From: Mesotaenium endlicherianum
Lineage: Eukaryota
Direction of reading: 5' to 3'
Assembly (NCBI GenBank): GCA_009602735.1
Contig: WELA01001939.1
Coordinates: 959,742 to 1,023,741, forward strand
Length of the DNA: 64,000 nucleotides
In this document: positions 10,158 through 13,100 of the stretch, piece after piece
Layout of the letters: every line of letters begins with the position of its first letter
Position numbering within the stretch: position 1 is the first letter of the stretch
Made by a program: the position numbers and the translations under genes
The notes under the pieces: model-generated
What the model saw: only the letters and a program-made list of their open reading frames with translations
What the model was told of the DNA's origin: nothing
Databases searched by the model: none

Positions 10158-13100
10158 ATGGCTACGCAGATGAACAAGAAGAAGAAGGTTCGCGCTTTTT
10201 CCCCTGTGTATCAAAGGAAATCTTTGTTTTTGGGCAAATCTGTGAATCTTCTAGTCCTTTGCACTAGACATCTTATAGCCTATACACCTCGTAGAACAAC
10301 CTCTTCGATCGCTTAAACACTTTAACATGACGCCCCATCTATTTCACATTGGACGAATATTTATAAGGCAAGACATGGAGGGTAGTGGGTTCCGGCATGA
10401 ACCTCTTTCTCTATGGCTGGATCATTTTTCCTACCTTTGAGGACTTTAGACCTCGTTAGGGTTTAAGGACCTTTCTACACAATCTTTGTTTGTGTCGCAA
10501 GTGTGAGGGTTCTTAGAGTGCCTTGTGCACGAGGAAAGCAAGATCAAGCTAACATAATCATGGACTAGGCTTCTGTTACGGAGTGGATGGGTTACATCAG
10601 ACCTGTATGCATGCAGTAGCTAATTTTGGCCTGAAGGTTTAGCTGAAGGGTAGCTTGTAAAGGGAGGTGAATGCGCGCTCTATAGGAAGGGGTCAAGCAA
10701 TAGTTTGTTCAATTTTGCTGATAGGGAAGAACCAATAATATTAGCCTTGGCTGGATTGGTCCTGGCACGCGCACTGCCTCATTTGGGTCAGCTCGATTTT
10801 AGATGCAGCCGGTACTGATTGGTAGCTGAAGGCGTTGCTGGAAGGTTGCAGTGGCCTGCTTGACTGCACCTTTCTGAAAAGCATGTTCTATTTTGGGCTG
10901 CTCTCTCATTGTTGGGCTACCATTGGGTTTTCTGGTGCGCAGTTTGTAGCAGATGGTGTGTTCTTTGCTGAGCTTAATGAGATGCTCACGAGAGAGCTCG
11001 CTGAGGAGGGCTACTCTGGCGTGGAGGTGCGCAACACCCCCATGCGCGTTGAGATTATCATCCGTGCCACTCGCACCCAGAACGTCCTTGGTGAGTACAC
11101 ATCCGCTGCTTATGATACATTGTGCATGGATGTTACATGCGCCTGGAGGCTACTAAGATTTTGCTGGTTGACCCACCCCGAGTTCGACCTAAAGCACACA
11201 GTTCTTCTGTGAGGTGCATACAGTTAAAACCCTTTGCCTGCCTATGGAAGATGCTTTTTTTGTGTTTTTCTGATCTTATGCAGACATCTCAGTCTGACTA
11301 AATCTAGCCTTAAATTGTGTCAAGTTGTCAGGATACATCATATAGTACACTACACACATGTTTCACCATGACTTGCATCGGCTGTTCCTGCTTGAGTGTG
11401 ATGAGGACTATTGTCGCCCCAGTCCTACACGCATGCTTGCATGCTCTGAGGATTGACTCATTTGCACGTCAGTCTGACTCTAGCGGAGCCTGTAGATGCC
11501 GTTGCGTGAAAGGGCATGTTCAGTATGTAGCAAATGTGTTCTCTTAGCAAATATTTGTTCCCAGGATTGTTTTTGCATCAGCTGTTCCTGCTTGAGTGTG
11601 ATGAGGACTATTGTCGCCCCAGTCCTACACGCATGCTTGCATGCTCTGAGGATTGACTCATTTGCACGTCAGTCTGACTCTAGCGGAGCCTGTAGATGCC
11701 GTTGCGTGAAAGGGCATGTTCAGTATGTAGCAAATGTGTTCTCTTAGCAAATATTTGTTCCCAGGATTGTTTTTGCATCAGCTGTTCCTGCTTGAGTGTG
11801 ATGAGGACTATTGTCGCCCCAGTCCTACACGCATGCTTGCATGCTCTGAGGATTGACTCATTTGCACGTCAGTCTGACTCTAGCGGAGCCTGTAGATGCC
11901 GTTGCGTGAAAGGGCATGTTCAGTATGTAGCAAATGTGTTCTCTTAGCAAATATTTGTTCCCAGGATTGTTTTTGCATCAGCTGTTCCTGCTTGAGTGTG
12001 ATGAGGACTATTGTCGCCCCAGTCCTACACGCATGCTTGCATGCTCTGAGGATTGACTCATTTGCACGTCAGTCTGACTCTAGCGGAGCCTGTAGATGCC
12101 GTTGCGTGAAAGGGCATGTTCAGTATGTAGCAAATGTGTTCTCTTAGCAAATATTTGTTCCCAGGATTGTTTTTGCATCAGCTGTTCCTGCTTGAGTGTG
12201 ATGAGGACTATTGTCGCCCCAGTCCTACACGCATGCTTGCATGCTCTGAGGATTGACTCATTTGCACGTCAGTCTGACTCTAGCGGAGCCTGTAGATGCC
12301 GTTGCGTGAAAGGGCATGTTCAGTATGTAGCAAATTTGTTCTCTTAGCAAATATTTGTTCCCAGGATTGTTTTTGCATCAGCTGTTCCTGCTTGAGTGTG
12401 ATGAGGACTATTGTCGCCCCAGTCCTACACGCATGCTTGCATGCTCTGAGGATTGACTCATTTGCACGTCAGTCTGACTCTAGCGGAGCCTGTAGATGCC
12501 GTTGCGTGAAAGGGCATGTTCAGTATGTAGCAAATTTGTTCTCTTAGCAAATCTTTGTTCCCAGGATTGTTTTTGCATCAGCTGTTCCTGCTTGAGTGTG
12601 ATGAGGACTATTGTCGCCCCAGTCCTACATGCATGCTTGCATGCTCTGAGGATTGACTCATTTGCACGTCAGTCTGACTCAAGCATAGCCTGTAGCTGCC
12701 GTCGTGTGAAAGGGCATGTTATCTGGTGTGTAGCAAAAAATTCTGTTGTGTTTTTGTGTCTTCTTTTCTGCCTGCCTGACTTTGGCCAGAGCTCCACTGC
12801 AAGCAAATTTGTAGAGTGTTACCATGCCTGAAGTTTACATCTTTTTTGCGTTCATAGCCTGCAGACTGTTTGAGGGATACAAGAAGCAGCACGTTTGAAT
12901 GAGGGTGGCACGTGAAGCTCTCGTGCCTGCTTCTCAATGTTCCTTGCATGTGCCTTATCCTAGAGACTGCTATTTGTGCATGATTGTCAGGCCTCCAAAT
13001 TATAATGAGCTCTCAAAGGGCAGGAAGTCTCGCACAGGTAATCTGCAGAAGTGTCGGATCAAAACCCTTGGCAGAGGTGCATAAGGTCTGAGACCTTTAT

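Follow-up and report, generated by a model that had tools for sequence, protein, structure and literature searches.

A probable short tandem cluster of a predicted dual-guide small nucleolar RNA of the box C/D type in an RPS3 intron of Mesotaenium endlicherianum, and its relation to the plant families U31 and snoR72Y

The 64,000-nucleotide stretch of the Mesotaenium endlicherianum genome analysed here (contig WELA01001939.1, positions 959,742 to 1,023,741; hereafter the window) carries, inside intron 2 of the ribosomal protein gene RPS3 (uS3), a 200-bp tandem repeat whose units contain the motifs of a small nucleolar RNA (snoRNA) of the box C/D type. Is this repeat a satellite with chance motifs or a set of snoRNA genes, and in the second case, how many genes are there, what do they guide, and to which known RNAs are they related? 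The original prediction, made from the sequence alone, described a recently amplified, seven-copy array of a snoRNA with two guides. The analysis reported here favours, with a probability of roughly 80%, a short tandem cluster, likely of about three copies, of a box C/D snoRNA with two predicted sites of 2′-O-methylation in the large-subunit ribosomal RNA (LSU rRNA; Arabidopsis numbering), the P-loop G (G2620) for its D′ guide and A885 for its D guide.

Tandem Repeats Finder places the array at 11373..12720 (period 200, 6.7 copies, 99% matches) on the forward strand, which also carries all the features of the array and of RPS3 given below. The first snoRNA copy, located with Rfam, spans 11389..11485, and a contig covers its left flank and joins it to unique upstream DNA. 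It comprises a C box (GTGATGA, 11398-11404), the D′ guide (11412-11423), a D′ box (CCTA, 11424-11427), a 5-bp D′-C′ hairpin given by fold prediction (11431-11444), a C′ box (CTGAGGA, 11446-11452), the D guide (11460-11473) and a D box (CTGA, 11474-11477). Copies 2 to 5 (11589-11685, 11789-11885, 11989-12085 and 12189-12285) have identical cores and are followed by copy 6 (12389..12485) and copy 7 (12589..12685), the latter with the best Rfam scores and with a 7315-nt contig that carries its tail into unique downstream DNA. Copy 7 is closed by a perfect terminal stem of 8 bp (12589-12596 paired with 12678-12685), with a 3-nt bulge before the G-A pairs; in copies 1 to 6 this stem has one U-U mismatch. 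Together with the stem and bulge, the C (GUGAUGA) and D (CUGA) boxes fit the geometry of a kink-turn. The four boxes and the stem are thus all present where the original prediction had put them. Upstream of copy 1, the last 11 bases (11289-11299) of the stretch 11241-11297 equal the end of the D guide plus box D; this stretch has no C box and no Rfam or profile match, and is possibly the remnant of an older copy.

All seven assembled copies exceed the gathering threshold of the Rfam family snoU31b (RF01285), with 40.9-41.8 bits against 37 and the top score of 41.8 in copy 7. The match rests on box C, the D′ guide and the motif that follows C′; the D guide has no counterpart in the model and is aligned as an insertion. 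The family snoU31b has a single guide, and with its extra 14-nt D guide the RNA is better described as U31-like than as plain U31. The second family is snoZ122 (RF00343), to which copy 7 scores 39.1 bits and the other six 35.8, against a gathering threshold of 38. Here the match consists essentially of the boxes and the D guide, and the 14-nt D guide and the D box are identical to the Rfam consensus. Copy 1 at 11389-11485 therefore passes the snoU31b threshold and matches snoZ122 at 35.8 bits. A supplementary table of PMC5122169 lists Z122 together with snoR72Y. Both halves of the RNA are known plant families, U31 and snoR72Y/Z122, a point that the original prediction missed, and flowering plants are a more informative comparison than yeast.

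Which nucleotides the two guides would reach was tested on eukaryotic LSU rRNAs, found as contaminants of prokaryotic bins and used as proxies for the 25S rRNA of Mesotaenium. The 17 proxy loci (L122-L138; all seven sent to Rfam are eukaryotic LSU) had been picked by a pattern with the D-guide target, which leaves the D′ match as the only unselected one. Three of the proxy rRNAs hold both sites on one strand, and in all three the two best duplexes along the whole RNA are those of the two guides: 14 bp without G-U pairs for the D guide, and 13 bp with two G-U pairs for the D′ guide. The best rRNA duplex score was reached by none of 150 mononucleotide shuffles; since, in addition, 7/7 copies pass the snoU31b threshold, the boxes and guides are not a product of chance. 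The rule that the nucleotide paired to the fifth base upstream of the D box is methylated leads to an A for the D guide and to a G for the D′ guide, 1733 nt apart in L127 and 1665 and 1845 nt apart in the other two, compared with 1735 nt between A885 and G2620 of Arabidopsis. In E. coli rrlH, this G has position 2251. In Arabidopsis, A885 is assigned to SnoR72Y and G2620 to both U31 and SnoR35, and Gm2620 corresponds to yeast Gm2619 and E. coli Gm2251 (PMC8053127); in yeast, snR72 serves position 876 of 25S rRNA, and snR67 serves 2619 and 2724 (PMC5824354). Because the sites found on the fetched rRNAs agree with these assignments, the two targets that the original prediction had named, Gm2251/Gm2619 for the D′ guide and Am876 (snR72) for the D guide, were right, the latter A being Arabidopsis A885. 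Its claim of a dual-guide box C/D snoRNA is in this way supported by boxes, Rfam matches and two rRNA duplexes. A further base-pairing role for the conserved UUGAC after C′ was considered and set aside, as it forms only weak duplexes (-3 to -6 kcal/mol).

The proxy loci are contamination of prokaryotic records. Among them are two rDNA units at a distance of about 6.2 kb from each other, both on one 429-kb contig that had been binned as alphaproteobacterial. In viral contigs, at least 120 loci are listed for the 14-nt D guide, among which one is an rRNA fragment and the rest apparently chance matches; the eight matches to a relaxed version of the fused pattern are all without C and D boxes. The fragment lies at a viral contig end (L044, 1610-1661), matches eukaryotic LSU rRNA over about 50 nt and is probably a chimera.

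The host gene is well defined. All six RPS3 exons match, by tblastn, a protein labelled jgi/Mesen1 (Mesotaenium; P0006), to which exon 3 is 100% identical, and their sum is 693 nt, that is 230 amino acids plus the stop codon. Coding exon 1 lies at 10158..10187, exon 2 at 10943..11090, exon 3 at 13613..13784, exon 4 at 14448..14502, exon 5 at 15273..15404, and exon 6 with the stop codon at 15874..16029. Eight of the 24 sequencing runs listed under the species label were aligned to stretches holding one unit. In the RNA runs X21 and X24, the splice 10187->10943 is carried by 748 and 1116 raw reads, and 894 and 1858 reads that pass the end of exon 2 continue with the start of exon 3 (agreement 1.0 and 0.99). 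These reads confirm the predicted location of the array in an RPS3 intron, namely intron 2 (GT..AG, 11091..13612), in which the array lies in sense orientation. The intron measures 2522 nt as assembled and would measure about 1720 nt with three copies. Apart from the array, a motif scan of intron 2 gave no additional C/D motifs, BLAST with the unit and a profile built from four sequences gave no further copies in the window, and an Rfam E-value scan gave no other snoRNA between positions 10 and 20 kb of the window.

In such an intron, the established biology of box C/D RNAs would apply, in which Snu13, Nop56, Nop58 and fibrillarin assemble on the RNA, its ends are trimmed to the stem, and the nucleotide at the +5 position is methylated. 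After splicing, the four proteins would bind the C/D and C′/D′ motifs; the spacers would then be cut and the ends trimmed to the stem, yielding single RNAs of about 90-97 nt, and with these fibrillarin would methylate, for each D box, the rRNA nucleotide opposite the fifth base upstream of it. RNA reads document sense-strand transcription of at least two different spacers, and splicing, junction reads and the two spacers together identify two or more snoRNA genes co-transcribed in one spliced intron. The fold of the spacers is unremarkable (z -1.1 and -1.0).

Most of the RNA reads of this snoRNA come from elsewhere, a circumstance that could not be seen from the window alone. At position 11438, 123/138 (about 89%; X21 35/41, X24 55/60, X22 33/37) carry an allele found in no copy of the window. 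They have flanks of their own and a spacer that is homologous to that of the array yet diverged from it (14 differences over 94 nt), and they include the joint of one copy's end to another's start. About three such copies are suggested by the depth of alternative contigs, and one more variant, in which the C box is damaged, brings the number to about four. Together, these paralogues look like an older cluster whose spacers are homologous; the poly(A) RNA in which it was recovered includes long flanks. A locus separate from RPS3 intron 2 is likely because their depth (about 40 in X21) is far above that of the intron-2 flanks (0-1). The snoRNA would thus belong to a family of roughly seven paralogues, of which those outside the window likely lie at a separate locus that is recovered in greater abundance. 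A close RPS3 paralogue is disfavoured as their host, for no exon variant reaches 3% at 90% likeness. Among the paralogous reads, variants fall at 0/27 guide positions and at 19/69 spacer positions (Fisher p=0.0012). Of the variants in the D′-C′ hairpin, two change the loop (CUUG to UUCG or CUCG) and one keeps a G-U pair; another variant restores the terminal stem.

These reads bear on the possibility that only one guide, or neither, works in the copies of the RPS3 intron, which would then be redundant by-products, the function being fulfilled by the other cluster. The dominance of the foreign allele at 11438 and the weakened terminal stem of copies 1 to 6 point in this direction, as does the redundancy known for U31 in Arabidopsis, where SnoR35 shares G2620. 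Boxes and guides are, however, intact in all copies of the window, RPS3 is highly expressed (exon depth of about 1000 in X21), and poly(A) libraries capture excised introns poorly, so that the share of reads understates the output. We consider this possibility unlikely.

How many of the seven assembled copies exist was addressed with DNA and RNA reads. Within the array, copies 2 to 4 are mutually identical, copy 1 differs at 11380 and copy 5 at 12336, copy 6 differs at 12536 and 12553, and copy 7 has seven differing sites in its first 148 nt before it departs from the repeat near 12720. Tandem organisation is real: a 160-nt contig joins a unit end to a unit start in runs X1, X2 and X3, though not in X4 or X9, and raw RNA reads cross the tandem junction in X24 (3) and X22 (13, of which 11 in mRNA orientation). 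Compared with the unique contigs on its upstream and downstream sides, the junction contig has depth ratios of 1.63 and 1.35 in X1, 1.90 and 1.74 in X2, and 1.90 and 1.54 in X3, whereas 31-mer counts in modelled arrays predict 1.0, 1.63, 2.63 and 5.39 for two, three, four and seven copies. A second array-specific contig gives 3.45/3.16 (X2) and 3.65/2.95 (X3), where 3, 4 or 7 would be expected for the respective copy numbers. Among 22 RNA reads of the spacer, the types of copies 1-4, copy 5 and copy 6, as deduced from per-site counts, stand at 12:0:10, the last type (12536 T, 12553 C) marking the spacer downstream of copy 6; the assembly predicts 4:1:1 (p=0.001), and three copies predict 1:0:1. 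Because both contig depth in X1-X3 and spacer alleles fit three copies and reject seven, the true array likely has about three (copies 1, 6 and 7), possibly four, and most or all of copies 2 to 5 are likely surplus. The seven units are probably an inflation by the assembler, and we infer that the surplus arose in gap filling, with the assembler likely passing through the repeat loop more times than there are copies. An array of two copies in heterozygous state is disfavoured, since it would give a ratio of about 1.0 or less, against the 1.35-1.90 observed. The tandem copies of the original prediction are accordingly upheld and their number is not, and the recent seven-copy amplification was overstated, the array being probably an over-filled cluster of about three copies.

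A different account would leave about seven real copies in place and make the middle ones diverged paralogues that the assembler overwrote with identical units. About three array-type and four paralogue-type copies do add up to about seven, one paralogue spacer is homologous to the array spacer, with the 14 differences mentioned above, and the contigs cannot phase across the shared core. In X21, however, the paralogues reach a depth of about 40, against 2 for the array spacer and the 0-1 of the intron-2 flanks; their own four to five flanks do not fit the stretch; and in X9 their contigs have a depth of 38-110 where the intron flanks have 15-18, which fits a separate transcript. That the paralogues sit inside the array is, on these grounds, quite unlikely.

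It is also conceivable in principle that the assembly is right and that a genuine, very recent amplification to seven copies took place, possibly raising the dosage of the snoRNA. The assembled sequence does show seven units, whose variants form a gradient from 5′ to 3′, the tandem junction is found in RNA runs of other studies, and at 11380 X22 has 14 reads of copies 2-7 against three of copy 1. Against this stand the depth ratios of 1.35-1.90 in three libraries where 5.39 is expected, the copy-5 spacer type in 0/22 reads, and the nature of the window, a gapped draft with 10 N runs. In the same intron, moreover, four decayed tandem duplicates of the intron-2/exon-3 boundary (13268..13567, found by sequence comparison) record duplication without any snoRNA to select, and because of them a local tendency to duplicate, unrelated to snoRNA dosage, can be assumed. 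An amplification to seven is very improbable; the cluster of about three copies would likely have arisen by local tandem duplication with little selection on their number. Each of the boundary duplicates combines the acceptor site of intron 2 with 40-57 nt from the beginning of RPS3 exon 3, and they seem to be little used, with exon-2 reads agreeing at 0.99-1.0 with the true exon 3.

Several observations weigh against the short cluster of dual-guide snoRNAs. The use of proxy rRNAs and their selection by the D-guide target have been described above. The D′ (CCUA) and C′ (CUGAGGA) boxes have two mismatches each to the consensus, although they align with CUUA/AUGCUGA of the algal locus L001 discussed below and with the U31b model. 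The invariance of the guides is not significant in comparison with the rest of the snoRNA (0/27 against 7/71, p=0.18). No pile-up of read ends at the snoRNA borders and no mature small RNA were seen in the runs, which are poly(A)/PCR RNA sequencing. As to copy number, X1-X4 are one DNA sample, possibly the source of the assembly, which makes them right for testing the assembly but not independent, and contig depth is an imperfect proxy that is no copy number in itself: presumed single-copy contigs vary widely within a run (40-56 in X1, 26-56 in X4). X4 has no junction contig and a ratio of 0.46 where three copies predict 2.0. The RNA allele counts include duplicated starts, so that with seven distinct starts for the C allele a rough, conservative estimate is p=0.007. 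At 11380, the 14:3 of X22 for later copies versus copy 1 is nearer to 6 than to 2, and in X24 the same ratio is about 3:3.

The same RNA occurs in a second organism. In the metagenome collection, the exact two-guide pattern was found at one locus, L001, in which an intact fused snoRNA (1238-1324) scores 51.5 bits for snoU31b and 28.9 for snoZ122, below the gathering threshold of 38. It lies within an intron of RPF2, a gene with a Brix domain, and between it and the window there is conservation of both guides and of every box. Identity of the RPF2 protein pieces is 44-53% with four proteins from chlorophytes and 49-50% with two from angiosperms, which makes the source of L001, by sequence, a green alga distant from Mesotaenium. 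A paralogue lies 180 nt upstream (1057-1144; 41.5 bits for snoU31b), which has kept the D′ guide and lost the D guide, and in which boxes C and D are damaged. The RPF2 intron (939-1459) also has a further C-box-like motif near 1000, with no Rfam match. An ordinary satellite with chance motifs, as which Tandem Repeats Finder would class the 200-bp repeat (a minisatellite), can be regarded as refuted by the gathering-level Rfam matches, the two rRNA duplexes in the right register, the invariant guides and the conservation of the RNA in this second green alga.

Among known systems, the closest on the D′ side is plant U31 (U31a/b of Arabidopsis, HID2; RF01285), which has the same D′ guide in the register for Gm2620/2619 and the same UUGAC after C′. 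Its functional counterparts are yeast snR67, human U31, CD13 of Dictyostelium and CrCD28 of Chlamydomonas, and the second target differs between lineages: where Mesotaenium has the A885/A876 guide, snR67 targets U2724 (PMC5824354), CD13 is reported to target A1370, and CrCD28, which shares the D′ box CCUA, carries another sequence. On the D side, the 14-nt guide and the CUGA that follows it are identical to those of most of the at least 26 snoR72Y rows (RF00343) listed. The counterparts here are yeast snR72, Neurospora CD5, described as pairing the A876-type guide with the snR78 target, and Chlamydomonas CrCD51, with the A885 guide at D′ where Mesotaenium has it at D. The nearest parallel for the fusion itself is the fungal clan CD_5 (snR60/snR72/snR78), for which duplication followed by the loss of one guide has been proposed (PMC5824354, PMC2780460); there, as here, one lineage has both guides on a single RNA where another has them on two separate RNAs. 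The partner guide and the kingdom are different, and L001 adds a guide-loss paralogue beside an intact gene. Plant and algal snoRNA clusters, like that of Mesotaenium, have several snoRNA genes per precursor, and a Chlamydomonas study, by its title, reportedly deals with intronic clusters of this kind. Polycistronic precursors are called standard in plants (PMC5122169). The Mesotaenium cluster differs in being composed of near-identical copies of one gene in RPS3 intron 2, and its size is modest once copy number is corrected.

These comparisons point to a possible common origin for two plant families. A motif search of the PMC5122169 supplements lists at least 23 eudicot U31 RNAs with the D′ guide, in which box D is preceded by no more than a short U-rich stretch, and at least 26 snoR72Y rows with the D guide, none of which shows the U31 guide. 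With one guide each at the same box positions, eudicot U31 and snoR72Y may be split descendants of one RNA, and by eye, the U31 of Digitalis agrees with L001 over about 12 bases that extend from C′ to the first part of the D guide, the remainder expected after a deletion. We therefore lean, if only by a little, towards an ancestral dual-guide RNA (Gm2620 at D′, Am885 at D) that would predate land plants and have been split by duplication and reciprocal loss of guides into U31 and snoR72Y, with L001 as the first half of such a split under way. The two families would then be paralogues of algal age, whereas PMC5122169, which lists them in eudicots only and reports almost no homologues of land-plant snoRNAs in green algae, proposes them as recent eudicot innovations. 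Simple ancestry is made less certain by Chlamydomonas, where the two guides are on separate RNAs (CrCD28, and CrCD51 with its A885 guide at D′), by the free shuffling of guides in fungi and Dictyostelium, and by the thin sample of two genomes in which the fused form has been seen. No pairing of the U31 and snoR72Y guides on one RNA was found in the available parts of the literature (including PMC5122169, PMC8053127, PMC8351944, PMC5824354, PMC2780460, PMC3511168 and PMC8817022), the primary Chlamydomonas, rice and Arabidopsis snoRNA surveys being outside this scope. There is precedent for dual guides, for the fission of guides and for snoRNAs in clusters or introns; what appears to be new is this particular pairing.

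Elsewhere in the window, a 48-bp repeat of about three copies (9588-9729) lies 430 nt upstream of the RPS3 start codon. A degenerate 57-bp tandem array, rich in GCT/GGC words, occupies 18360-19500, and the adjoining open reading frame (ORF) at 19629-20180 looks, by eye, like a fragment of a Harbinger-type transposase. From 27000 to 63400, nested Ty3/gypsy-like retroelements can be recognised by eye (gag, protease, reverse transcriptase, integrase and chromodomain-like ends). The ORF at 48957-50099 resembles a cytosine methyltransferase, presumably of the sort present in DIRS-type elements.

For genome biology, the locus is a warning that arrays of near-identical snoRNAs can be inflated in short-read drafts. 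One of the predicted targets is the conserved P-loop G of the peptidyl-transferase centre, and no new mechanism is involved. The main interest lies in the possible common origin of U31 and snoR72Y. Matches to both families on one RNA, present in the class that is sister to land plants and again in a distantly related green alga, offer a concrete and cheap test of the subfunctionalisation of plant snoRNAs, for which the fused RNA would be a better search seed in mosses, ferns and gymnosperms.

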